Shown: piece by piece, positions 40,323 to 56,076 of the stretch
How the letters are laid out: each line of letters begins with the position of its first letter
Numbering within the stretch: the stretch's first letter is position 1
Assembly: GCA_002309075.1 (NCBI GenBank)
Contig: DBWP01000015.1
Coordinates: forward strand, 1,612 to 65,611
From: Candidatus Saccharibacteria bacterium UBA1235
GTDB taxonomy: Bacteria; Patescibacteriota; Saccharimonadia; Saccharimonadales; Saccharimonadaceae
DNA length: 64,000 bases
Reading direction: 5' to 3'
Notes under the pieces: model-generated
Seen by the model: the letters and a program-made list of their open reading frames with translations, nothing else
Told to the model about the DNA's origin: nothing
The model's database searches: none
Made by a program: the position numbers and the translations under genes

Positions 40323-40395
40323 AACGGGTGACGCCACTTGGGGGACCCCCACCGAGCCTTGCGAGGATGGGGGAAAAGTGGCGGCAGGACCCGTT
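40323..40395. repeat. Nested GC-rich palindromic element between ftsH and pepN
   Basis: aacgggt/acccgtt, cgccactt/aagtggcg and ccccca/tggggg nested arms. Confidence 0.8.
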
Positions 40396-43469: not shown

Positions 43470-44186
43470 TCACATGCCCTCTAGCATGGCAGCATCAAGT
43501 CTTAGAGTTTTACCATCATTTAATATGAGTAAAGTTGCCCATCCGCTATTTCCCGCCTCGTTAGAATATATATTTTCTTTAATTCCAGCTCCAATTCCAT
43601 CAACCACAAAACCGTCAATTTTTAACGTTCCTTTAACATTGAACGTATTTCCACTTTGCTCGTCAACCGGAACATATTGAACTGTTCCATCCGTCATAAT
43701 AAAACCTATTCCATTCTTAAAGCCTTCGAGCATCGTATTTGTAAGTAAAATCGGTTTGTAAATCTTGCCATTCACGCCATTAACCTGACAGCTTTCTGAC
43801 TCAGAATCCTCATCGGCATCTTCCCGTTCTATACTACATCTAATTATTTCCCCATTCTCAATTCTAATGCTGACATATTTATATTGATAATCTTCATAAT
43901 TTTCGTTATCGTCGTGATCATGGCTATCGCCTATCTCTATAGTCGAAGTGATACTAAGTGTGTAAGCCGCCGGCGCTTCTGCCGTTATAACTGCATTCGA
44001 GCCCGTGCGAGAAATTTCACTTCCCGAAGCCGTCGAACCCTGCGTTGTCACATCGTTATTTCTCGTAACAAGCATTGCGATACCAAAAACTAATCCGGCC
44101 ACCGCCACCGCCGTCATAATAATTCCAAAAATTTTCCAATTAAACCTAGACCTTTTTGTTTCTTGTAAAATTATATCGTCTTGCAT
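43470..44186 (-). CDS. Hypothetical single-TM protein
   Basis: N-terminal TM followed by a beta-rich extracellular domain. Confidence 0.7.
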   Translation of the reverse strand: MQDDIILQETKRSRFNWKIFGIIMTAVAVAGLVFGIAMLVTRNNDVTTQGSTASGSEISRTGSNAVITAEAPAAYTLSITSTIEIGDSHDHDDNENYEDYQYKYVSIRIENGEIIRCSIEREDADEDSESESCQVNGVNGKIYKPILLTNTMLEGFKNGIGFIMTDGTVQYVPVDEQSGNTFNVKGTLKIDGFVVDGIGAGIKENIYSNEAGNSGWATLLILNDGKTLRLDAAMLEGM

Positions 44187-44222
44187 AAAAAATCCCTTTT
44201 ATGCTTATAATTATATCACAAA

Positions 44223-46073
44223 CTAATCGCGTTTTAGCATTACAGTAAAGGCCTCTGACGGAATATCAATTTTTCCGAACCGTTTCATTCGTGCCTTACC
44301 GCGCTTTTGTTTTTCAAGAAGTTTTGCTTTTCGATCCCTATCACCAGTATGAATTTTTACCGTCACATCTTTTCGGTATGCACCAATCGTTTCGCGCGCA
44401 ATAATTCTCGCACCGATCGCCGCTTGAAGCGCAACTTCCCAGTTTTGTCGAGGAATTACTTCCTTCAATTTTTTAGTCGTTTCTCGTCCGATTGCATCCG
44501 CCTCTGACCTGTGGCACATGATAGAAAGTGCATCAATTTTATGACCACCAACTAGAAAATCTACTCGCACTAAATCTTCTGTTCTGTAGCCAGAAAGTTC
44601 ATAATTAAACGATGCATATCCGCTCGTCGCCGATTTTAACTGATCATAAAAATCCGTTAGAAGATTCGCCATCGGCGCCTCAAAATCAATCACCGCCCGA
44701 TCTTCAATATATGATAAATTCGTCTGCAGCCCGCGTTTTTCGTTAATAAGATTTAAGACATTTCCAATCATCGACTTTGGCAAAATAATTTCGCCTTTTA
44801 CCCAAGGCTCCCGAATTTCAAGAACCTCGCTCATGTCCGGAAGATCTGCCGCCGATTTGATTTCTAAAATCTCACCATTATTTAAAACTACTTCATAATT
44901 TGTAGATGGATTCGTGATAATAAGATCGAGTCCAAATTCTCGCTCCAAACGTTCCCGAATAATATCCATATGGAGAAGCCCCAAAAAACCAATCCGAAGC
45001 CCAAACCCAAGAACTGGCGAATTTTCCGGCTCATAAACCAGCGCCGAATCCGATAAGGAAAGTTTTTCAATCGCTTCTTTTAAATCTTTGTATTGATCAT
45101 TCGATACAGGGAAAAATCCCGCATACACAAACGGAAGAACATGTTTATATCCAGGCAAAGCTTGCGCCGCTGGATTTTTTGCAATAGTCACCGTATCACC
45201 AACTCGTGCTTCACGTGTAGTCTTTAAGTTTGTAACAATGTATCCAATCTCACCTTCTGACAATTTTTCTCGCGGCGACATTTTCGGCGTTAAAACTCCG
45301 ACTTCAAGCGCCAAGCCCTTTGTTCCTGCCGCCATCATCAAAATTTCCGCATTCTTCTTAATTTCACCTTCAAAAATCCGAACATACAAAACCACCCCCC
45401 GATAATCATCAAAATAGGAGTCAAAAATCAAAGCTTTAGTAGAAACACCATCACTTAATTCTCGGCCCGCGTCCGCTCGGCCCGTCGCCACGGGCGAGCG
45501 GCGCTTTTCCTCGCCTTGCCAGGCTCCGGATGACCTCGAATCAAGCGATGGCGTTTCTATTATGGCATCTAAAATTTTATCGACTCCAAGTCCGGTTTTA
45601 CCCGAAGCTTCAATAATTTCGTCTCGCGAACATCCAAGAAGATTTATAATTTGTGCCGCTACGCCTTCCACATCTGCCGCAGGCAAATCAACTTTATTAA
45701 TTACTGGAATAATTTTAAGATCCTGTTCAAGTGCAAGATAAACATTCGCGAGAGTCTGTGCCTGAATTCCCTGCGTTGCATCAACCACAAGCACCGCTGT
45801 CTCAACCGCCTGTAGACTCCTTGAAACTTCATATGAAAAATCCACGTGGCCCGGCGTATCGATTAAATTTAAAGTATATCCTTTCCAATTCATCGTTACT
45901 GGCGCAAGTTTGATCGTAATACCCTTCTCGCGCTCAAGCTCCATTGAATCTAAAAGCTGCTCTTTCATTTCGCGCTTAGAAACCGTCCCGGAAAGCTCCA
46001 TCATCCGATCCGCGATCGTCGATTTTCCATGATCAATATGCGCAATAATGCAAAAGTTTCGAATCTTATCCAT
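44223..46073 (-). CDS. lepA: Elongation factor 4 (LepA) with in-frame palindromic insertion
   Basis: IRNFCIIAHIDHGKST, DTPGHVDF, NKVD, GFLGLLH, KLLEKQK.GK.RMK. Confidence 0.98.
   Translation of the reverse strand: MDKIRNFCIIAHIDHGKSTIADRMMELSGTVSKREMKEQLLDSMELEREKGITIKLAPVTMNWKGYTLNLIDTPGHVDFSYEVSRSLQAVETAVLVVDATQGIQAQTLANVYLALEQDLKIIPVINKVDLPAADVEGVAAQIINLLGCSRDEIIEASGKTGLGVDKILDAIIETPSLDSRSSGAWQGEEKRRSPVATGRADAGRELSDGVSTKALIFDSYFDDYRGVVLYVRIFEGEIKKNAEILMMAAGTKGLALEVGVLTPKMSPREKLSEGEIGYIVTNLKTTREARVGDTVTIAKNPAAQALPGYKHVLPFVYAGFFPVSNDQYKDLKEAIEKLSLSDSALVYEPENSPVLGFGLRIGFLGLLHMDIIRERLEREFGLDLIITNPSTNYEVVLNNGEILEIKSAADLPDMSEVLEIREPWVKGEIILPKSMIGNVLNLINEKRGLQTNLSYIEDRAVIDFEAPMANLLTDFYDQLKSATSGYASFNYELSGYRTEDLVRVDFLVGGHKIDALSIMCHRSEADAIGRETTKKLKEVIPRQNWEVALQAAIGARIIARETIGAYRKDVTVKIHTGDRDRKAKLLEKQKRGKARMKRFGKIDIPSEAFTVMLKRD
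45440..45559 (-). repeat. In-frame palindromic element in lepA (120 nt)
   Basis: 22-bp terminal stem with 3 G-T pairs; core gctcgcccgtggcgacgggccgagc. Confidence 0.9.
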
Positions 46074-46102
46074 ATATACTATATTATATAATATTTCACA
46101 AA

Positions 46103-46132
46103 AAAATAAACCCCTATACGGGGGTTTATTTT
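46103..46132 (-). terminator. Intrinsic terminator
   Basis: aaaataaacccc...ggggtttatttt. Confidence 0.8.
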
Positions 46133-46141
46133 CTTTAATAA

Positions 46142-47158
46142 TTAGAGATGTACTGTAGATTCTCCAGAATCATCCCGGCAAGTAGTTCCAAAGAAAGCTT
46201 TCTTCAAGTCTTCTGTATTATATTCGCTACAACTAGCATAATCCTGTCCCCCGTAGAAGAATTGCCATTCAGCTGTTGGGCTAACTCGGTAAAACTCCCC
46301 GCGTCCGCCATTCATGCCGACGGTTATTCTTTGATGAGAATCAGCCCCATCTATTATTTTACCACCAGGATGTAATTTTATAGGATATTCACCAGTTTTA
46401 TTATAATATGCCATTATAAGCGATTTAGCTAAAGTTTTTTCTTCATCCGTTAACCAAGACCAATTAGCTTCCGCACAGTCTAAATAAACCTCTGTATTAT
46501 CATCAAAAATCCCACATACGACATTGATATTTGCATTATAATATCCCTCGAGAATTGGGCCAGCAGAACCCATAAATGGAATTTCACCAATAGCACTAAA
46601 ACCAGCGTCTACCAAATTAGCGCTCATTACCGAAACAGTATTCCCAGCATTTGATGTACTTATTGATGCCTCAAGAACATTTTCTAACGGCACAAACGTT
46701 TCCGTTCCATCAAACTTATATGACAAATCAAACATATTATCGCCCCGGATCTCACCACCAAAATTATCGAAACTAGACATTATATTCGTCATCAAATCTC
46801 TAACGCCCTTATATTCCGACACGGTACTTCCAGTAGCTGTCCCGTTATTTTCATCCGGCGTAGTTGTTGAACCGTTATTATTTGCGTTTGGATTGTTTGT
46901 TGGTTTATTCCCAACATAGCTTATACCAAAGAACAAAGCTATAACCGCAAAAATCAATGCAAGCGCGCCAAGCACAATGGCAAGAATTTTTATCTTTTTT
47001 ATCGATGAGTCTGTAGTTGCCGAAGTAACCACCGGTACCACCGGCGTCGACTCAGACATCGGTTCAGACACTGATGCTGATGCATTTAAAGGATTATCTT
47101 GTTGTACTGGTGCATCATTAGCCCCAGCTTGTTGATTAAAGCTATTCTGATCTTCCAT
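46142..47158 (-). CDS. Hypothetical single-TM surface protein
   Basis: Low-complexity N-terminus, TM at about aa 57-80, Cys-containing extracellular domain. Confidence 0.7.
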   Translation of the reverse strand: MEDQNSFNQQAGANDAPVQQDNPLNASASVSEPMSESTPVVPVVTSATTDSSIKKIKILAIVLGALALIFAVIALFFGISYVGNKPTNNPNANNNGSTTTPDENNGTATGSTVSEYKGVRDLMTNIMSSFDNFGGEIRGDNMFDLSYKFDGTETFVPLENVLEASISTSNAGNTVSVMSANLVDAGFSAIGEIPFMGSAGPILEGYYNANINVVCGIFDDNTEVYLDCAEANWSWLTDEEKTLAKSLIMAYYNKTGEYPIKLHPGGKIIDGADSHQRITVGMNGGRGEFYRVSPTAEWQFFYGGQDYASCSEYNTEDLKKAFFGTTCRDDSGESTVHL

Positions 47159-47182
47159 AAGTATATTATAACATACTTATGT

Positions 47183-49360
47183 TTATTCAACTCCGATCAT
47201 CGAAAGCGATAATTTCCCTCTTTCATCAACCGCTACGAGTCTTACACGTATCTTGTCTCCAACATGCAAAACTTCGTCAACGCTTTTAAGTCGCTTCTTG
47301 TCCGTAATTTGCGAAATATGAAGCATCCCATCAACTCCTGGCATAATATTTACGAACGCGCCAAAATCCTTAATCGTCACAACCGTTCCTTCGTAAATTT
47401 TTCCAACTTCCGGCTCATCAATCAAAGAATGAATCCAATCTAGAGCTTTTTTAATACTCTCAGCGTTCGTGCCAGCCACTGTCACAAGCCCAGAATCTTC
47501 AATATCAACTTCCGCACCAGTTTCCGACGTAATCTTATTAATCGTTTCGCCGCCCTTGCCAATAATCATTCCGATCTTTTCCGGCTTCACCATCAATTTT
47601 TCAATTTGTGGCGCAAACTTAGAAATCTCCGCACGCGGCTTATCGATCACACTCATGATATGATCGAGGATAAACATTCGTCCTTCATGACTTTGCTTCA
47701 AGGCTTTTTCCATAATTTCAACTGGAAGGCCATGCACTTTCATGTCCATTTGGAGCGCAGTAATACCTTCAGTTGTACCAGTTACCTTAAAGTCCATATC
47801 ACCCGCAAAATCTTCCGCGTCCATAAGGTCCGTAAGAACATACGCCTTATCGATGTCTGAAGCTTCGATTGGCTGTCCCTTAGGAACATCCACCATAAGC
47901 CCCATCGCCACACCAGAAACTGGGCGCGAAATTGGCACACCTGCATCCATCAAAGCCATACAAGACGAACAAGTCGCAGCCATCGAAGTCGAACCATTTT
48001 GCGACATAATTTCAGTCACCGAACGAATCGCGTAAGGGAAATCTTCTTCAGAAGGAAGTACTGGAATCAAAGCTCTTTCCGCCAAATATCCGTGTCCAAT
48101 CTCACGACGTCCTGGCGAACCAATTCGTCCCGGCTCTCCAACCGTATAAGACGGCGCGTTATAATGATGCATATAGCGACGCTTTCCGTTCGTCACTTCC
48201 ATCGTATCGACTTCTTGCGCATAAGACAAAGGTGCAAGCGTCACAATATTCATCGCCTGTGTTACGCCACGCGTAAAGAGCGACGAACCATGCGTTCTTG
48301 GCAAAATCCCAACTTGCGAAGACAGAGGTCGTACTTCGTTTAATTTTCGTCCATCCGGACGCACGCCTTCCTCAACAATACCACGTCGAACTTCTTTATG
48401 AACGGCAAGTTCAAACGCCTGATCATAAACATCACGCAAATTCTCGTCATACCATTCAACTTTTTCGTTATCCGTCTCGCCCTGACCTTTAGACAATGCA
48501 AACTCATCATGCATCGCGTATTTAATATCATCGAGCATCTGCGCGCGTTCCATCACATTTCCACGAATCTTCGAGCCAAATTTGCTCGCCGTCCAGTTAG
48601 CAACTTCTTCTAAAATCGCTTCATCTGGCAAAACCAATTCATATTCCTGCTCTGGAGCCGCAACCTGCTTAGAAAGTTCGCGCTGTAAGTCCAAAACCGG
48701 CTGCACATTCGAAACTGCCCAATGCATCGCTTCTAGAATCGTCTCTTCAGGAACTTCTTTCGCGCCCGCCTCAACCATCATAATCTTGCCATCTTTGCAA
48801 GCCACCACAAGATCAAGCGGCGAAATTTCGCGCTCTTCTGGGCTTAAGAAGCCCTTAAATTCACCACCAATTCGTCCAATCCTAATTCCAGCAATTGGCC
48901 CGTCAAACGGCACACCCGCATTCATGAGCGCAGAAGACGCCGCAATCATCGCTACACAATCCGGCCTAAAATTCGGATCCATCGACAAAACCGTACAAAC
49001 CACCTGCACTTCCTGACGGTAGCCCTTCGGGAAAAGCGGGCGAATCGGTCGGTCAATTAACCGCCCCACAAGAACCGCCTCATCCGCCGGTTTTCCTTCA
49101 CGCTTAATAAATTTCGATCCACTAATTTTCCCCGCCGCATACCATTTTTCTTCATAATCAATCGATAACGGGAAGAAATCTTGTACTACTGGCTTCGTTC
49201 CAACTACTACCGACCCTAGAACCACTGTGTCACCATAAGTAACCAAAACACTAGACGTTGTTCTAAATCCAACCCGATTCACCTCAAGCGTCAATTTCCG
49301 CCCCAACCACTCCGTTGAAACCTGAATCGTCTTTTTTCCGTTCGGATTAATAATCTCCAT
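47183..49360 (-). CDS. pnp: Polyribonucleotide nucleotidyltransferase
   Basis: FFPLSIDYEEK, RLIDRPIRPLFP, RRE.GHG.LAERAL, SQNGSTSMA, DFAGDMDFKV, KH and S1 domains. Confidence 0.98.
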   Translation of the reverse strand: MEIINPNGKKTIQVSTEWLGRKLTLEVNRVGFRTTSSVLVTYGDTVVLGSVVVGTKPVVQDFFPLSIDYEEKWYAAGKISGSKFIKREGKPADEAVLVGRLIDRPIRPLFPKGYRQEVQVVCTVLSMDPNFRPDCVAMIAASSALMNAGVPFDGPIAGIRIGRIGGEFKGFLSPEEREISPLDLVVACKDGKIMMVEAGAKEVPEETILEAMHWAVSNVQPVLDLQRELSKQVAAPEQEYELVLPDEAILEEVANWTASKFGSKIRGNVMERAQMLDDIKYAMHDEFALSKGQGETDNEKVEWYDENLRDVYDQAFELAVHKEVRRGIVEEGVRPDGRKLNEVRPLSSQVGILPRTHGSSLFTRGVTQAMNIVTLAPLSYAQEVDTMEVTNGKRRYMHHYNAPSYTVGEPGRIGSPGRREIGHGYLAERALIPVLPSEEDFPYAIRSVTEIMSQNGSTSMAATCSSCMALMDAGVPISRPVSGVAMGLMVDVPKGQPIEASDIDKAYVLTDLMDAEDFAGDMDFKVTGTTEGITALQMDMKVHGLPVEIMEKALKQSHEGRMFILDHIMSVIDKPRAEISKFAPQIEKLMVKPEKIGMIIGKGGETINKITSETGAEVDIEDSGLVTVAGTNAESIKKALDWIHSLIDEPEVGKIYEGTVVTIKDFGAFVNIMPGVDGMLHISQITDKKRLKSVDEVLHVGDKIRVRLVAVDERGKLSLSMIGVE

Positions 49361-49376
49361 GAAAATATCCTTTCTT

Positions 49377-49423
49377 GGGAAAACTCCAGATATAAGCCCC
49401 TATCTCATATCTGCCGTCTTCCC
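49377..49423 (-). promoter_or_regulatory. Long hairpin in the pnp 5-prime leader
   Basis: GGGAAGAC/GUUUUCCC and CAGAUAUGAG/CUUAUAUCUG stems separated by a 2x2 loop; TGgTACAAT upstream. Confidence 0.7.
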
Positions 49424-49453
49424 CTTGTTAATGTTATATCTATTGTACCACAG

Positions 49454-49483
49454 CTTGACTTTTTTAGCAATCTGTGCTATAAT
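49454..49483 (+). promoter_or_regulatory. Promoter TTGACT-N17-TATAAT
   Basis: cttgacttttttagcaatctgtgctataat. Confidence 0.8.
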
Positions 49484-49544
49484 AAGAAAGATGGGGTAAT
49501 TCTGCCTCATCGAACTTTGAAATTCTCAGGGGAGGTGTAGTTAA

Positions 49545-50177
49545 TTGGACTACAGAGACGAAGATTTGTTGGAAGAAATGTTCGAAAAGTACGCAGATGA
49601 GTGCGAAGACGCTTTAAATATCGCTCTCGCACGAATCAAAAACGTAAAAAGCGCAATTGAGCGCGCCGGAGATGACAGCCATATTGATCTCCTTGCTAGT
49701 CGCATTAAAACCTTTGAATCGACAAAGGAGAAATGCGGACGCAGAGGGTATGATTTTAATATGAAGAGCATTAAGAAGAATGTTCGGGACATCGCCGGAA
49801 TCCGCATTATTACTGTTTTCAGAGACGAAATTTATTCTGTCGTGGAGATGCTTCATCATATTCCAGGACTGAACGTCGAAGACGAAACGGATTATGTGAA
49901 ATGCCCGAAGCAAAACGGCTACTCAAGCTACCATATGCACGTTTTGGTTGAAATCTACAATCCTATAGAGAATAGCACAAAGCTAATCCCTATCGAAATT
50001 CAGATTAGGAGTCAGAGCATGCACTACTGGGCTTCAGCGGAGCACAAGTTAAAGTACAAAAATAGCGACGCTGATCCAAGAGTGGCAGAATCATTCAAAA
50101 ACCTTGCTGATTCTTTAGCTAAATCGGACGAGATCGCAATTCAATTACGCGACGCGAACAAAGATTCTTCCAACTAA
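49545..50177 (+). CDS. Small alarmone synthetase (RelP/RelQ-like RelA_SpoT domain)
   Basis: RIK..ES..EK, DIAGIRII, DYV..PK.NGYSSYH, EIQIRS..MHYWASAEHKLKYK; TTG start after GGAGGTG. Confidence 0.9.
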   Translation: MDYRDEDLLEEMFEKYADECEDALNIALARIKNVKSAIERAGDDSHIDLLASRIKTFESTKEKCGRRGYDFNMKSIKKNVRDIAGIRIITVFRDEIYSVVEMLHHIPGLNVEDETDYVKCPKQNGYSSYHMHVLVEIYNPIENSTKLIPIEIQIRSQSMHYWASAEHKLKYKNSDADPRVAESFKNLADSLAKSDEIAIQLRDANKDSSN

Positions 50178-50178
50178 C

Positions 50179-50206
50179 AAAAACCCCGCTTCACGCGGGG
50201 ATTTTT
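50179..50206. terminator. Bidirectional terminator
   Basis: aaaaaccccgc-ttcac-gcgggg-attttt. Confidence 0.8.
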
Positions 50207-50217
50207 CTTTTCTAAAG

Positions 50218-50484
50218 TTATTTCCTAAGTCCGAGCTTAGCAACAGTCTTCTTATATAGCTCAAAGTTAGTCTCTTCGAGGTACTTAAGAAGTTTTTTAC
50301 GCTTCCCGACCATCTGCATGAGACCGCGTTTAGCCATAAAGTCATGTTTATTATTCTTAACGTGCTCAGTCACCTCTTTGATGCGAGCGGTAAGAATAGC
50401 CACTTGAACTTCAGGAGAACCAACATCGGCTTTGTTACGAGCGACACTGGCAATAGCTTTATCCTTATTCTCTTTTGTTATCAT
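50218..50484 (-). CDS. rpsO: 30S ribosomal protein S15
   Basis: DVGSPEVQVAILT.RI, H...NKHD, RGL..MVGKRKKLL.YL. Confidence 0.98.
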   Translation of the reverse strand: MITKENKDKAIASVARNKADVGSPEVQVAILTARIKEVTEHVKNNKHDFMAKRGLMQMVGKRKKLLKYLEETNFELYKKTVAKLGLRK

Positions 50485-50522
50485 ACCCCCATTATAACAC
50501 AGTTTTATGGTATAATCAAGAG

Positions 50523-51179
50523 ATGAATCCTGAAGACCGAATCATCTTAATCGATAAACCTGCTGGAATTTCCAGTTTTGGTGTCGTAGCTAAAGTTCGC
50601 GCAAGGCTCCGCGACGAATTTGGACATAAGGTTAAGGTCGGCCACACCGGAACACTCGACCCTTTCGCAACAGGCCTTCTAATTTTACTATCTGGCAAAA
50701 TGACTAAAAAATCGGGAGATTTCTTAAAACTTGACAAGGTTTACGAAGCAACCCTAAAGCTCGGTTACGTTTCTTCCACTGGCGATCCAGAAGGAGAGAT
50801 TCAAGAATATCCAAGCGAAGGGCCAGAAGATGAGCGTTCCGAGAAAGACGTATCTCTGGTGCTTAACAGCTTCGTTGGTGAAATTGAACAAACTCCCCCT
50901 CGTTTTAGCGCTATCAAAATTAATGGTGAGCGCGCTTATAAACTAGCCCGGAAAGGTAAAGATTTTGAGATCCCTTCCCGTAAAGTCACCATATATAGCA
51001 TTGAAATTTTGGACTATAATTATCCTGAATTAAAAATCCGCTGTCATGTTAGTTCTGGTACATATATTCGGACTCTCGCCGAAGACATCGGCAAAAAACT
51101 CGGAACCGGCGCTTATCTAACATCGCTTCGTCGTCTCAAAATCGCAAACTACGACGTAAAAGATGCTTCTGTGCTATAA
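50523..51179 (+). CDS. truB: tRNA pseudouridine(55) synthase TruB
   Basis: DKPAG.SSF, KVGHTGTLDPFATG, Q.PP.FSAIK..G.RAY, SSGTYIRTL. Confidence 0.97.
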   Translation: MNPEDRIILIDKPAGISSFGVVAKVRARLRDEFGHKVKVGHTGTLDPFATGLLILLSGKMTKKSGDFLKLDKVYEATLKLGYVSSTGDPEGEIQEYPSEGPEDERSEKDVSLVLNSFVGEIEQTPPRFSAIKINGERAYKLARKGKDFEIPSRKVTIYSIEILDYNYPELKIRCHVSSGTYIRTLAEDIGKKLGTGAYLTSLRRLKIANYDVKDASVL

Positions 51180-51186
51180 TTAGGTT

Positions 51187-51792
51187 ATGTTAGTTTATGC
51201 ATCAAAGTTAATTGGCGCTCCAATTCTCAGCATGCAATCTGCTGGCCCGATCGGAGTTATTACTGATCTCGTCGTAGACCCAAATACTCTTAAAATTCTC
51301 GCTTTTCGCATTAAAGGTCCGCTCGTTAAAACTGCAAATATTCTTGATGTAAAATCCGTCCGAGAATATTCTAAATATGGTTGCGTCGTGGATTCAATTG
51401 ACGAACTCGTCGAAAAAGGCGATATTATAAAAGTTAGTGAAATTATTGATCTTAATTTTGATTTAAATGGCCTTAAAGTTGAAACTAAAAAGAAAACTAA
51501 ACTCGGCCACGTCATTGATTTTACCGTCACTTCAGAAGATTTTAACGTAAAGCAAATTATCGTAAAACGCCCGCTTGTCAAAAGTTTTCTTGATTCTGAG
51601 CTTATTATCCCACGTAGCGAAATTACCGAAGTCACCGATTATAAAATAATCGTAAAAGACGAAGAAAAAACTATTAAAGAAAAAGCTGAAACAACCGAAT
51701 TTGTGCCAAATTTTGTCAATCCTTTTCGTAAGACCGAACCAGCTCACTCGCCAGCTGCCACGCAAACCCCTGCCGACACAGATATTGAGTAA
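51187..51792 (+). CDS. Tandem PRC-barrel domain protein
   Basis: Two PRC-barrel-like repeats (GVITDLVVDP; GHVIDF.V). Confidence 0.7.
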   Translation: MLVYASKLIGAPILSMQSAGPIGVITDLVVDPNTLKILAFRIKGPLVKTANILDVKSVREYSKYGCVVDSIDELVEKGDIIKVSEIIDLNFDLNGLKVETKKKTKLGHVIDFTVTSEDFNVKQIIVKRPLVKSFLDSELIIPRSEITEVTDYKIIVKDEEKTIKEKAETTEFVPNFVNPFRKTEPAHSPAATQTPADTDIE

Positions 51793-52474
51793 GTTTTTCG
51801 TCATCATATTTTGCGCGTTTTTTCGCAATTATTTTTAAAATTTCCTCTTCGTCGCTTCTGCCAGAATCTCGTAAGACTTCCTCAATAATATCTTTTGAGA
51901 TTCCTTTTTTCAAAAGTTCCATTTTAAGACGCTTCTGGCTCACTCCTTTTTTAACAAACCGATTTTCAACATACCATTCTGCAAACTTAAAATCATCTAT
52001 ATAGCCATGAGACTTGAGACGTTCTATGATTCTTAATGAAAACTCAGAAACGTCTATCGAGGAGCTTTCGCGACCAACGGGGAGCGAGTGAAAGCCGGCT
52101 CGCCCGTAACGACGGGCCGAGCCAAGCGTCTCCGAGATAGATGTTCTGAGTTTTTTATATAAATAATCGCTGAGTTCTTTTTCACTTCGCGGCCGCAAGA
52201 GAACCCACTCTAATGCTCTTTGGTATAATTTTCCAAATTCTGAAGCTTTTTTGTATTCTAAAAGCTCTTCCTCAGAAATTATTGATCCAACTTTTAATTT
52301 AAAATCCACAACTTGCGTAAGGTCAAGCGAAAATTCATATTTAGAATTTATGAAAACATTTACCCGATTTGGATTTTTTATTCCCTGCTTTAAGTTCGTA
52401 ATTTGAAGCTCCTGAGATTTTTCAAAATCACTAGAGCCTTCCTGAATTTTCTCGCCTAATTTATAAATTTCCAT
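51716..52474 (-). CDS. recX: Regulatory protein RecX with in-frame palindromic insertion
   Basis: RALEWVLLRPRSEKEL, GYIDD.KFA..YV, L..EL.KKGI, YL.RQGF; located downstream of recA. Confidence 0.9.
   Translation of the reverse strand: MEIYKLGEKIQEGSSDFEKSQELQITNLKQGIKNPNRVNVFINSKYEFSLDLTQVVDFKLKVGSIISEEELLEYKKASEFGKLYQRALEWVLLRPRSEKELSDYLYKKLRTSISETLGSARRYGRAGFHSLPVGRESSSIDVSEFSLRIIERLKSHGYIDDFKFAEWYVENRFVKKGVSQKRLKMELLKKGISKDIIEEVLRDSGRSDEEEILKIIAKKRAKYDDEKLTQYLCRQGFAWQLASELVRSYEKD
52039..52154 (+). repeat. In-frame palindromic element in recX (116 nt, antisense to the gene)
   Basis: Arms aaaactcagaaacgtctatc and gatagatgttctgagtttt; core gctcgcccgtaacgacgggccgagc. Confidence 0.9.
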
Positions 52475-53018
52475 GTTGCAAAAACCATTCTTTAAGACAC
52501 TTAAAAGTCAAACTATCTTTTTTAAGCGGCGCTTTTGCATATTTTTCACGAAATTCATCCGTTTCATCAAAAGAAATCCATCTAACTTCAGAAACTTCTT
52601 CATCATTAAAATGGAAATTTTCTTCTTTTCCAGTAAAATCAACCGCATAAACCCACGCGAAACGATTCTTATTAAACGGACGCATCGTCACGAAATTCAA
52701 ATCTTCTTCCGAAATAATTGTCCCAATTTCTTCTCGGGTTTCTCTCACCGCCGCCTGAACCACAGATTCACCTAAATTAACATGTCCACCCGCCGAAATG
52801 TCATAATCTCCTGGAAAACGATCGACTTTTTCTGAACGCCTTTGCCATAGAAGCTCTAGTTCCCCCTCAGAATTTTTTCGATACAAAAACACCACAGCCA
52901 CCCCAACAATCGCGCTCGAACCACTTTTTTCTGGGTTATCTAAAGCCGAATCCCATGAAGAACCGGGGATTGGTTCCCCATTCGGAGCATAAACTTGCCA
53001 AGCCTCATCTTTATGCAT
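52461..53018 (-). CDS. NUDIX hydrolase
   Basis: SAGGHVNLGES...AAVRETREEIG Nudix box. Confidence 0.9.
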   Translation of the reverse strand: MHKDEAWQVYAPNGEPIPGSSWDSALDNPEKSGSSAIVGVAVVFLYRKNSEGELELLWQRRSEKVDRFPGDYDISAGGHVNLGESVVQAAVRETREEIGTIISEEDLNFVTMRPFNKNRFAWVYAVDFTGKEENFHFNDEEVSEVRWISFDETDEFREKYAKAPLKKDSLTFKCLKEWFLQHGNL

Positions 53019-53026
53019 ATCAATTT

Positions 53027-54049
53027 CTAGGCTTCCGCCGCCGCTTTCTCGCGGACTTGTTTTTCAATTTCCGCCATTAATTCCGGTTTTTCTTTAAACA
53101 ATTTCTTCACAGCCTCACGACCTTGTCCTAAAGTCTCGCCGTTGTATTTAATAAATGCACCCGCCTTATCTAGGATTCCATATTGCACGCCAAGATCCAA
53201 AACATCACCCGTCTTTGAAATGCCTTCGTTATACATAATATCAAATTCCGCCGTTCTAAATGGCGCCGCAATTTTATTTTTTACAACCTTAATTTTTGTC
53301 CTGTTTCCAGAAATATTTTCGCCTTCTTTAATCTGGCCAATTCGGCGAATATCAACTCTTACCGAAGCATAAAACTTCAAGGCGTTACCGCCTGTTGTGG
53401 TTTCTGGATTTCCGAACATCACGCCAATCTTCATGCGAATTTGGTTAATAAAGATTACTGTAGCTTTAGATTTAGAAATAATACCAGTAAGTTTTCGCAT
53501 CGCCTGCGACATAAGCCGCGCTTGAAGTCCCATTTGCGCATCACCCATTTCCCCATCAATTTCCGCTTGTGGAACCAACGCCGCAACCGAGTCAACCACA
53601 ATCAAATCCACCGCGTTTGACCTAACCAAAGTTTCACAAATTTCGAGCGCTTGTTCGCCGTTATCCGGCTGAGAAATTAACAAATTCGCTGTATCGACGC
53701 CAATTTTCTTCGCATAAGCTGGGTCGAGGGCATGCTCCGCATCAATAAACGCCGCCTGGCCGCCTTGTTTCTGAATTTCTGCAATTGCATGAAGCGCCAA
53801 AGTTGTCTTACCAGAAGACTCTGGCCCATAAATCTCGATAATGCGCCCCTTCGGGTAACCACCTCCAAGCGCAAGATCTAGCGCTAAAGAACCAGACGGC
53901 AAAAGTTCGACATCCATCTTTGGCGTCTCGCCAAGTTTCATAATCGAACCATCACCAAACTGCTTCGTAATTTGAGCAATCGCAAGCTTTAGAGCTTCGT
54001 TCTTTCCGTCATTTTTATTATCTTCCACCACCGCGTCTTTCTTTGCCAT
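53027..54049 (-). CDS. recA: Recombinase RecA
   Basis: [46 protein letters not shown]. Confidence 0.99.
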
Positions 54050-54205
54050 ATAAGTATTACCTTTCTATGATTATTATATAATATTTTTTGCTTAGAGAAT
54101 AGAGGCATTTTTTTAATTCTCTGCCCACCTTCTAGCATGGGGCAAATTATTTTTCAACCCCCCACCTTTCTACCCCTGTTCTTAAAAATATGGTATAATG
54201 GAAAA

Positions 54206-55297
54206 ATGAAGATTTTGGAAAATGTTTTATTAAAAAATCTTACGACCATGCGGCTCGGTGGCCCTGCAAAATTTGTTATTGAAATTGAAAAACCTGAAGA
54301 AATTAAAGCCGCCCACGAATTTGCGCTTGAGAAAAACTTACCTATTTTTGTTCTCGGCGGCGGCGCTAATACTATCGCAAAAGACGAGGGTTTTAACGGC
54401 GTCATCATCAAAAACGTCATGAAAGGTATCGAGGCTACGGACAGTGTTTTCGCGCAAACATTGCGACTAACGAGGAGCTTGTCGAGCGAGCCCCGTAACG
54501 ACGGGCGCGAGCGAGACGGTTTGCGCGAAAATACTTCCGTAATCATTACCGCTCTGGGCGGTACCGAATGGGACGCCGTTGTAGAATTCGCCTGTAACAA
54601 AGGCTTAACCGGTATCGAAGCCCTCTCCAAAATCCCTGGTCTCACTGGAGCTGCCCCTGTTCAAAACATCGGCGCCTATGGCCAAGATATCTCCGATACT
54701 TTCGTTTCCGCCGAAGTTTACGATTTTAAAGAAAAAACTTTTAAAACCCTAAAAAAGTCCGATTTTGGCTTTTCTTACCGTAAATCTATTCTAAATTCCT
54801 CCGAAAAAGGTCGCTATTTCGTAATTTCTATTGCTCTGGAGCTAAAAAAAGGCGAAATGAAACGCCCGTTTTATAATTCCATTGAAAAATACATCGAAGA
54901 AAATAATATTTCTGATTTTAGTCCGCTAAAAATCCGCGAAATTGTCTCTAAAATCCGCGCCGATAAATTACCAGACCCAAAATTCGAAGCTAGCGCCGGC
55001 TCTTTCTTCAAAAATATCTATCTATCCGAAGAAGAGGCAAAGCTCGCCGAAGAAAAGGGTCTCCCTGTTTATCATGGCCACGACGGATATAAAATCAATT
55101 CCGGCTGGCTCATCGAAAGCGCCGGTTTATCTGGTAAACTTCTTCATGGCTTTCGTGTAAACGAAAAAGCTGCCCTTGTTTTGATTAACGAATCTGCTAA
55201 AAGTTATGCTGATTTAGCCTCTGCCCGCGCCGAAATTATCACCGCTGTCAAAGAAAAATTCGGCTACACATTAGAACAGGAGCCCGTCGAACTATGA
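54206..55297 (+). CDS. murB: UDP-N-acetylenolpyruvoylglucosamine reductase with in-frame palindromic insertion
   Basis: TTMRLGG.A, GGGAN, IPG..GAAPVQNIGAYG, SAGSFFKN, LEQEP; start after TGGTATAAT-N6. Confidence 0.95.
   Translation: MKILENVLLKNLTTMRLGGPAKFVIEIEKPEEIKAAHEFALEKNLPIFVLGGGANTIAKDEGFNGVIIKNVMKGIEATDSVFAQTLRLTRSLSSEPRNDGRERDGLRENTSVIITALGGTEWDAVVEFACNKGLTGIEALSKIPGLTGAAPVQNIGAYGQDISDTFVSAEVYDFKEKTFKTLKKSDFGFSYRKSILNSSEKGRYFVISIALELKKGEMKRPFYNSIEKYIEENNISDFSPLKIREIVSKIRADKLPDPKFEASAGSFFKNIYLSEEEAKLAEEKGLPVYHGHDGYKINSGWLIESAGLSGKLLHGFRVNEKAALVLINESAKSYADLASARAEIITAVKEKFGYTLEQEPVEL
54436..54541 (+). repeat. In-frame palindromic element in murB (106 nt)
   Basis: 23-bp terminal stem with one bulge and one G-T pair; core cccgtaacgacgggc. 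Confidence 0.9.
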
Positions 55298-56076
55298 AAT
55301 CTCTGAACGGAAAAGAACTCGCTGATTTTATCAAAGAGCGCCAGGCGCACGAAATCCGAAGCTTAGAAAAACAACCCGTCCTTCTTATTATTCGCGACAG
55401 CGACGACCCTGTTATTTCTAAATATGTTAACCTAAAAATCCGCTACGGCGAAGATATTGGGGTAAAAGTTATCGATTTTAAAGCCTCCTCAGCCGCCGAA
55501 ATCGAAAATCGCATTAAAGAGGCAAATTTAGACCCTGAAATTGACGGAATTATTCTCCAGCTCCCTATTACAGATAAAGATAAAACCGACGAACTGACTA
55601 GTCTAATCGCCCCAGAGAAAGACGTCGACGGCCTCTCTGGAAACGGCGATTTCGATTCCGCCACCGCAACCGCCATTCTCTGGCTTCTCGCCGGCTATAA
55701 TATTAACCTAGAAACGGCAAAAATCGCTATCGTCGGCCGCGGAAAACTTGTCGGCGCCCCTCTCTATAAAATATTTTCCGCCTCAAATTACCGCGTCGAC
55801 CTCTTTCATCGAGGTTCCGATCTGAAAGAATTAGCAAATTACGACGTAATAATCACCGCCACCGGTGTTCCAGGGCTAATTACGAGCGACTTTATCCGCC
55901 CTGGCACAGTTTTAGTTGACGCCGGCACCGCCTCTGAAAAAGGCATCTTAAAAGGCGACGTATCAGATGAGGTACGCGAGAGAAACGACCTCGGCGCCAT
56001 CACCCCTGCTATTGGCGGCGTTGGCCCCTTAACCGTCTCTTGTCTTTTTGACCACGTTATTATCGCTTCTAAATAA
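55294..56076 (+). CDS. folD: Bifunctional methylenetetrahydrofolate dehydrogenase/cyclohydrolase
   Basis: GIILQLP, EKDVDG, VGRGKLVG.P, VDAG, GGVGPLTV. Confidence 0.92.
   Translation: MKSLNGKELADFIKERQAHEIRSLEKQPVLLIIRDSDDPVISKYVNLKIRYGEDIGVKVIDFKASSAAEIENRIKEANLDPEIDGIILQLPITDKDKTDELTSLIAPEKDVDGLSGNGDFDSATATAILWLLAGYNINLETAKIAIVGRGKLVGAPLYKIFSASNYRVDLFHRGSDLKELANYDVIITATGVPGLITSDFIRPGTVLVDAGTASEKGILKGDVSDEVRERNDLGAITPAIGGVGPLTVSCLFDHVIIASK

Follow-up and report, generated by a model that had tools for sequence, protein, structure and literature searches.

What are the GC-rich palindromic segments that interrupt lepA, recX and murB in an ultra-small bacterium, and how did they come to lie in frame inside housekeeping proteins? 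The question arises from a 64,000-nt stretch of the genome of Candidatus Saccharibacteria bacterium UBA1235 (hereafter the window; contig C8, positions 1612-65611). The source is a metagenome-assembled genome (MAG) of a gut bacterium, designated G000, of 610,597 bp in 18 contigs, with a G+C content of approximately 41% and a completeness of 96%. A preliminary description of the window had proposed that these three genes each carry a member of one family of palindromic elements, closed by a terminal stem. The palindromic family stands, but it proved larger than described, with 16 copies in the genome, and the locus-specific nature of the terminal stems had been missed. Taken together, the data are probably best explained by a small, non-autonomous and genus-restricted family of GC-rich palindromic DNA, lodged in frame in permissive loops of housekeeping proteins. 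Under this explanation, the copies would be read through by the ribosome as loops about 27 amino acids longer than the empty site, and the family would have spread by fold-back template switching. The three host genes, whose identity as LepA, RecX and MurB was confirmed by Pfam, and their copies are located in the window as follows.

44223-46073, minus strand: lepA.
45441-45558, minus strand, in the gene's own orientation: hairpin of the lepA copy, with an 81-nt core at approximately 45459-45540 and private arms at 45441-45458 and 45541-45558.
51716-52474, minus strand: recX.
52039-52154, plus strand, antisense to the gene: hairpin of the recX copy, with the type B core CCCGTAACGACGGG and private arms at 52039-52058 and 52135-52153.
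54137-55297, plus strand: murB.
54436-54541, plus strand, in the gene's own orientation: hairpin of the murB copy, with a type B core, the most diverged, and arms at 54436-54459 and 54519-54541.

The sequence blocks by which the family was first recognized were all recovered. Over 45475-45499 (minus strand) in lepA and 52098-52122 in recX, the cores match at 23 of 25 positions, and murB and recX both contain CCCGTAACGACGGGC, together with GCGAC.AACG.GGAGC. The terminal stems are likewise present, the outer stems of the lepA, recX and murB hairpins comprising 25, 19 and 18 paired positions, respectively. Within the window, CCCGTNNCGACGGG occurs three times against an expectation of 0.00 (no occurrence in 100 shuffles), and, folded as single-stranded DNA, the three segments reach z-scores of -5.0, -6.3 and -4.1, with none of 200 shuffles folding as well. 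The genome-wide search for further copies that the preliminary description had called for returned 13 more, every one in frame in a housekeeping gene, and the same set of 16 was obtained with a regular expression, an nhmmer profile and a covariance model (R1). The density is thus one copy per 38 kb. The hosts comprise ValS, a FemX-like transferase, a P-type ATPase, TsaD, an RsuA-like pseudouridine synthase, Obg, TrmD, LeuS (two copies), an RNA methyltransferase, LepA, RecX, MurB, IleS, PolA and a lipid kinase; names other than LepA, RecX and MurB were assigned by reading the sequences.

All 16 copies lie within long open reading frames (ORFs; at least 257 codons), preserve the frame and are free of stops in the frame used. 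The intragenic location of the whole set is not significant in itself, because coding density is approximately 90%; the preservation of frame in every case reflects selection. Copies follow the orientation of their gene in 13 of 16 cases. Forward copies are translated in all three frames and reverse copies are translated too, with the lepA copy reading as ...PSLDSRSSGAWQGEEKRRSPVATGRADAGRELSDGVS... and the previously listed peptides RSPVATGRA, GSARRYGRA and EPRNDGRER indeed being stop-free. Most cores leave four to six of their six frames without stops, which is about what their G+C content predicts. One assembly feature bears on the copy count: runs of N adjoin or interrupt GC-rich repeats at contig ends, and the core in the RsuA-like gene contains NN (the places concerned being the start of contig C12, the end of C18 and C2:1593). 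These repeats seem to break or blur the assembly, and the true copy number may be higher.

The core common to the copies is approximately 81 nt long, equivalent to 27 codons, and has a G+C content of 59-79% in this 41% G+C genome. Its predicted fold is a Y-shaped three-way junction formed by a basal stem, a small hairpin and a long hairpin. The basal stem (TTCGAGG/CCGAGAA, with tandem G.A) and its variants are common to most copies, and the long hairpin ends in the cap CCCGT-RRCG-ACGGG. When 13 distinct cores were aligned, compensatory double changes were found at 11 of the 21 consensus pairs, and two subfamilies can be distinguished: type A (lepA-like), with a GGCG loop, and type B (recX- and murB-like), with an AACG loop. 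The lepA core is identical at 80-81 of 81 positions to both leuS cores of the same genome, their flanks being unrelated. Rfam covariance models gave no match to the element at E values up to 10 over positions 44000-56000 and, at the gathering score, only tRNAs across the whole window.

Outside this core, each copy is closed by an outer stem of 13-25 bp whose sequence is particular to its locus. These long terminal stems differ among all loci. Summed over the 16 copies, the private stems comprise 288 paired positions with 18 mismatches, 17 of which are transitions, and nine of them contain a one-base bulge. Of 13 copies on contigs with a clear GC skew, 11 have the plus strand of the core on the C-rich strand, which hints weakly at a tie to replication.

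The taxonomic range of the family was assessed by applying R1 to 61 relatives, comprising 37 congeners and representatives of 24 other genera of the order. The family was detected in 33 of the 37 congeneric genomes, with between 0 and 34 copies each, and in none of the 24 others. A 16-mer core pattern searched across all GTDB species yielded mostly chance matches in high-GC taxa; among its matches, 14 loci fit the model, 13 of them in MAGs named as Saccharibacteria or Ca. Nanosyncoccus and one in a record labelled only 'bacterium'. Many of the model-fitting MAGs were recovered from goat, sheep, cattle and roe-deer gut. In the congener G041, three of 17 copies are intergenic, and hence the family is not strictly intragenic. 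The cores of these intergenic copies (L065, L069 and L070) are identical at 72-75 of 81 positions to the ValS and IleS cores of UBA1235. One subfamily is approximately 90% identical between species whose ValS and LeuS proteins are approximately 75% identical.

The empty alleles that the preliminary description had proposed to look for among close orthologs exist. In the congener G007, compared over the whole genome, 15 of the 16 sites are empty, those of lepA, recX and murB among them. Relative to G007, UBA1235 is longer by 78-108 nt at ten cleanly aligned sites, in each case by a multiple of three, and at most sites by only 81-87 nt; the G007 flanks proved uninformative on the polarity of the arms. 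Many lepA homologs are empty as well. Among 120 LepA homologs, the loop between the G domain and domain II measures 29-32 residues in empty alleles, and filled loops, typically longer by 27 or 30 residues, carry this and related families in several frames and in both orientations. Some homologs bear versions shortened by in-frame deletions, and the two leuS sites show the same behavior as the lepA loop. The empty lepA allele P0121 (L061) contains in its loop GCGCCCCGTAACGG, encoding APRNG, which resembles the type B apical hairpin GAGCCCCGTAACGA, encoding EPRND; an earlier element may have left this stretch behind at the same hot spot. Much longer lepA loops occur in the congeners G022 and G018 (103 and 89 residues; L021 and L025), probably the result of nested or tandem insertions of several elements.

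Comparison with solved structures bore out the suggestion that the inserts map to loops, all three coinciding with alignment gaps against their homologs.

LepA insert, residues 174-211: gap against residues 179-190 of 3cb4, in the linker from the G domain to domain II.
RecX insert, residues 103-142: gap against residues 83-91 of 3d5l.
MurB insert, residues 83-132: gap against residues 63-84 of 4jay.

In Pfam terms, the recX copy interrupts the RecX_HTH1 domain and the murB copy splits the FAD_binding_4 domain. The insert is also the least confident stretch of an AlphaFold model of LepA, where it is predicted as coil.

The origin of the private stems was approached through pairs of alleles that differ by the presence of an insertion. 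Pairs 1 and 2 are metagenomic lepA alleles that are near-isogenic outside the loop (98.9% and 97.6% amino-acid identity) and are set apart by clean insertions (84 and 93 nt). The insert of pair 1 begins with 23 nt that correspond, in reverse complement, to the host sequence located just past its other end, with 22 of 23 positions matching, and none of 2000 shuffles gave as good a match. A corresponding inverted match to the flank spans 11 of 12 nt in pair 2 and 7 nt at the same junction in pair 4 (p ~0.03-0.05), and the inverted copy lies on one and the same side of the insert in all three pairs. These inverted flank copies indicate that the private stem is made at least partly from the target, being neither carried by the element nor present beforehand. 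The outermost stem bases are host DNA on both sides, and filled alleles depart there from the empty ones toward better pairing. No direct target-site duplication was found in the clean empty/filled pairs, the only direct repeat being a 5-nt junction ambiguity in pair 1. Targeting of pre-existing long palindromes was considered and rejected: a palindrome of 2 x 16 bp would be expected some 1e-4 times in 610 kb, and none is present in the empty alleles. Inverted repeats of 5-7 bp do pre-exist at two empty sites, and about half of such stretches would be expected to hold one by chance.

The lepA insertion is shared, at unchanged position and frame and with related arms, by orthologs that are 84-92% identical over residues 100-300, which marks it as an old insertion. 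In another lineage, the lepA core matches the core of leuS site 1 at 78 of 81 positions, and the lepA and leuS loci compared across the two lineages match at only 62-64 of 81. Cores therefore group by genome and not by locus, since identity within a genome exceeds that between orthologous loci. The same can be seen in G041, whose cores find their best UBA1235 matches (72-75 of 81) at non-orthologous loci, shared loci matching at 40-62 of 81. Furthermore, lepA alleles with a forward core (UBA1235, P0004 and P0013) and with a reverse core (P0041) are all 138 nt long and have homologous arms, and UBA1235 itself contains the near-identical core sets {LepA, LeuS1, LeuS2}, {TsaD, TrmD} and {ValS, IleS}. 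Taken together, these patterns indicate that copying was recent and that cores were replaced or inverted between arms that stayed fixed. Independent insertions recurring at the identical nucleotide are a less economical alternative. Both leuS sites carry one subfamily in 9 of 37 proteins, as against 6% of cross pairs, a difference that is suggestive only, with some four independent lineages represented. Two copies in one gene are often of the same subfamily or identical, as in leuS of UBA1235, valS of G041 (L067/L068) and several leuS lineages, which suggests local copying or conversion over approximately 1.2 kb.

That the family spreads through template switching with snap-back synthesis is suggested by the inverted flank copy and the short microhomology at the junction, and also by the absence of both a direct target duplication and a transposase; the individual steps are reconstructed from their products. 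A 3' DNA end at a break or a stalled fork would copy the core from another copy, and the new and very stable hairpin would fold back. Synthesis could then run on along the strand's own flank for some 10-25 nt, generating the private stem, before the end is rejoined by means of inverted microhomology of a few bases. The stem would be lengthened and repaired afterwards by intrastrand template switching, cores would be exchanged and flipped by inversion or gene conversion across the inverted repeats, and old copies would be eroded by in-frame deletions. Selection would retain only frame-preserving, stop-free copies in tolerant loops.

Several points weigh against this explanation. The support for fold-back consists of one strong pair and two modest ones, every one of them a lepA pair from genomes other than UBA1235; in a leuS pair (P0197 versus P0144) with a clean 105-nt insertion, the flanks have diverged too far to identify the original arm. 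The 81-87 nt excess at most sites is smaller than a core plus one arm, and so either host bases were lost at insertion or many of the stems arose by length-neutral conversion of the flanks. Translation of the copies is judged from conservation of frame alone, and the AlphaFold model of LepA (68 close homologs; mean predicted local distance difference test score, 49.7) is too poor to place the loop. The grouping of cores by genome assumes that alleles P0013 and P0127, which come from different samples, belong to one genome. Finally, the absence of a transposase from a 96%-complete MAG is compatible with an enzyme that a phage, a plasmid or the host bacterium provides in trans.

A stronger version of fold-back template switching, which we put forward tentatively and consider somewhat doubtful, is that the family is a transposase-free replicator, whose hairpin hijacks synthesis at breaks or forks, makes its terminal inverted repeat from the target and then serves as a cassette that can be swapped and flipped from locus to locus within essential genes. 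If true, this would be a mode of mobility undescribed for bacterial repeats, and it would provide a steady supply of new surface loops on core proteins in bacteria belonging to Candidate Phyla Radiation (CPR) lineages.

Could the copies instead be ordinary MITEs (transposable elements of the miniature inverted-repeat type), moved in trans by an enzyme of a phage, a plasmid or the host bacterium, or by the product of a lost gene, with private stems arising after insertion through quasipalindrome correction? The basal stem TTCGAGG...CCGAGAA is conserved in the manner of short terminal inverted repeats, the near-identical core sets of UBA1235 suggest recent bursts, at most sites the net excess approximates the length of the core by itself, and the change of the outermost stem bases from the empty alleles toward better pairing is what such correction would leave. 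The search for a mobilizer speaks against it. The preliminary description had named RAYT/Y1 and reverse transcriptase as candidates, and both are absent from UBA1235: with positive controls matching, no Y1/RAYT (PF01797), reverse transcriptase (PF00078), TnpB (PF07282), IS110 (PF01548), DDE_Tnp_1 (PF01609) or rve (PF00665) domain was found in this genome. Y1 is also absent from 35 of the 37 congeners, including those with 20-34 copies. Reverse transcriptase genes, in the form of ORFs of approximately 380-400 aa that score weakly against RVT_1, were found in 29 of 37 congeners as against 5 of 24 other genera of the order. Their presence does not track copy number in the genus: RVT_1 is missing from UBA1235 (16 copies) and from the high-copy congeners G010 (34) and G011 (22), yet present in G047 and G048, which have no copies. 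A scan of viral contigs with one 16-base core pattern gave 43 matches, of which a single one fit the model weakly, as a chance hit in a high-GC terminase gene. In addition, the clean allele pairs show no direct target-site duplication beyond the 5-nt ambiguity, and the 23-nt inverted flank copy of pair 1 belongs to the inserted DNA itself. Movement in trans followed by stem correction is thus considered unlikely, and template switching is retained as the preferred route.

It is less probable still that the segments serve the host, either as structured mRNA or DNA signals for pausing, stability or protein binding, or as useful surface loops. The compensatory changes in the stems would be accounted for in this way, as would the predominance of copies in gene orientation, the excess of G:T over A:C mismatches on the sense strand of the stems (12 versus 5) and the conservation of the orthologous lepA core, which differs at 4 of 81 nt from that of P0004 in genes that are 80% identical overall. 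The differences in that orthologous core are non-synonymous, however, and replacement of cores from paralogs accounts for the conservation equally well. Nor would a host function be expected to leave 15 of 16 sites empty in a congener and four congeners without any copy. The same loop, moreover, holds different subfamilies in different frames and orientations, so that the encoded peptides are wholly different, and copies decay by deletion.

Removal of the element from the mRNA in the manner of an intron, or its skipping by the ribosome as in yeast mitochondrial bypass elements, is highly improbable. The flanks do pair across the element, which would bring the two halves of the gene together, but constraints on frame and stops count against excision, because an excised element would need neither. 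All 16 copies obey both, and every length difference between orthologs is a multiple of three, decayed versions included; no Rfam ribozyme or intron matched. An assembly or amplification artefact, such as chimeric inverted joins, can practically be dismissed: some repeats of a second family, described below, do adjoin runs of N or contig ends, but the present family turns up, at the same loci and elsewhere, in dozens of assemblies made independently in different studies, which effectively refutes this reading, and it shows evolutionary divergence and compensatory changes.

Among known systems, REP and REPIN elements with their RAYT transposases and the palindromic MITEs derived from IS200/IS605 are extragenic and depend on a Y1 HUH transposase. 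They are, like the family described here, short hairpin repeats in which structure counts for more than sequence and which are probably handled as single-stranded DNA; the present copies differ in being intragenic throughout UBA1235 and in occurring in genomes that for the most part lack PF01797. Quasipalindrome template-switch mutagenesis and snap-back insertions at repaired breaks involve inverted copying of adjacent sequence, microhomology at the junction and the outward perfecting of imperfect palindromes, features that all recur in this family. To our knowledge, such events are sporadic and have not been recognized as the route by which a dispersed, conserved repeat family propagates.

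The closest analogy, already drawn in the preliminary description, is with the Rickettsia palindromic elements (RPEs), and the in-frame, non-disrupting placement of all 16 copies in unrelated protein-coding genes upholds it. RPE-1 to RPE-10 (Ogata et al. 2000, 2002) are summarized in PMC10969869 as palindromic repeats of approximately 100-150 bp in a reduced genome, roughly half of them intragenic. The same source describes in-frame, read-through copies in unrelated housekeeping genes that are tolerated in protein loops, with no known mobilizer. Both families are hence dispersed palindromes found in frame in unrelated housekeeping genes of a reduced genome, and a translated selfish element akin to RPEs is, by this analogy, the best-supported reading. 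The phylum is nevertheless unrelated and the likeness is one of description. The Saccharibacteria core is shorter (approximately 81 nt), Y-shaped and far more GC-rich than its genome; all 16 copies in UBA1235 are intragenic, against roughly half of RPEs; and the outer stem is private to the locus and partly copied from the target. Neither such stems nor the swapping and flipping of cores feature in the RPE descriptions consulted. Common descent with RPEs is unlikely, and the family would be an analog and not a member of the RPEs.

A purely functional resemblance extends to the GC-rich hairpin and double-hairpin elements of mitochondria (Paquin et al. 2000, and reports from sponges and placozoans). 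As reviewed in PMC7813641, they proliferate in spacers and also within protein-coding genes, vary from one close relative to another and are presumed mobile, with no enzyme known to move them. They too are GC-rich repeats of one or two hairpins in a small, AT-richer genome, as are the present cores with their two inner hairpins. They are organellar and usually shorter, and the review describes no private, target-derived stems. Three features set the family apart from the descriptions of both precedents: private stems derived from the target, a core that is Y-shaped and GC-rich, and cores that are swapped and flipped. The claim that no such family had been described in this lineage also held up: a literature search that included one key comparative paper on Saccharibacteria gave no report of such repeats for Saccharibacteria or the CPR.

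Selfish palindromes within essential proteins have so far been largely a single case, that of Rickettsia, plus organelles, and they are now extended to unrelated ultra-small symbionts. In UBA1235 they are confined to core genes and present at high density, and congeners range widely in copy number, from 0 to 34. The inserts lengthen LepA, aminoacyl-tRNA synthetases, PolA, MurB and other proteins by 26-36 residues. As they vary between closely related species, they have an effect on alignments, on phylogenomic markers and on the prediction of structures in the CPR. They may also be a source of innovation in protein loops in genomes under strong reduction. Because the target-derived private stems record each insertion, the family offers a tractable system for the study of hairpin movement without a transposase.

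A further trace of the family is present in the window, in a gene identified as truB by Pfam.

50475-51179: truB.
50823-50859, plus strand: decayed copy remnant, found as a weak nhmmer match.

The remnant keeps 17 nt, GAGCGTTCCGAGAAAGA, between short complementary arms. This stretch is identical to the 3' end of the PolA-type core and appears in the same form in the PolA copy of UBA1235 and in the ValS copies of G041. It looks like a copy that was mostly lost through in-frame deletion.

The genome also contains a second, unrelated family of GC-rich palindromes, approximately 85-90 nt long, with the consensus GACGGGTGACG...GGAGGGGGACCCCC...GGGGGAGGA...CGGCAGGACCCGTC and a variable middle stem, for which Rfam gave no match. 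It is represented at no fewer than 12 sites, one of them in the window at 40325-40393 (C8:41936-42004) and the others at C4_4849, C5_22220, C6_1335, C10_39189, C10_54387, C11_5825, C12_5406, C18_19209, C18_19639, C18_26718 and C18_37653. Most of its copies are found between genes or at their ends; one is contained within a 611-codon ORF, and another provides the start and approximately the first 25 codons of PolA.

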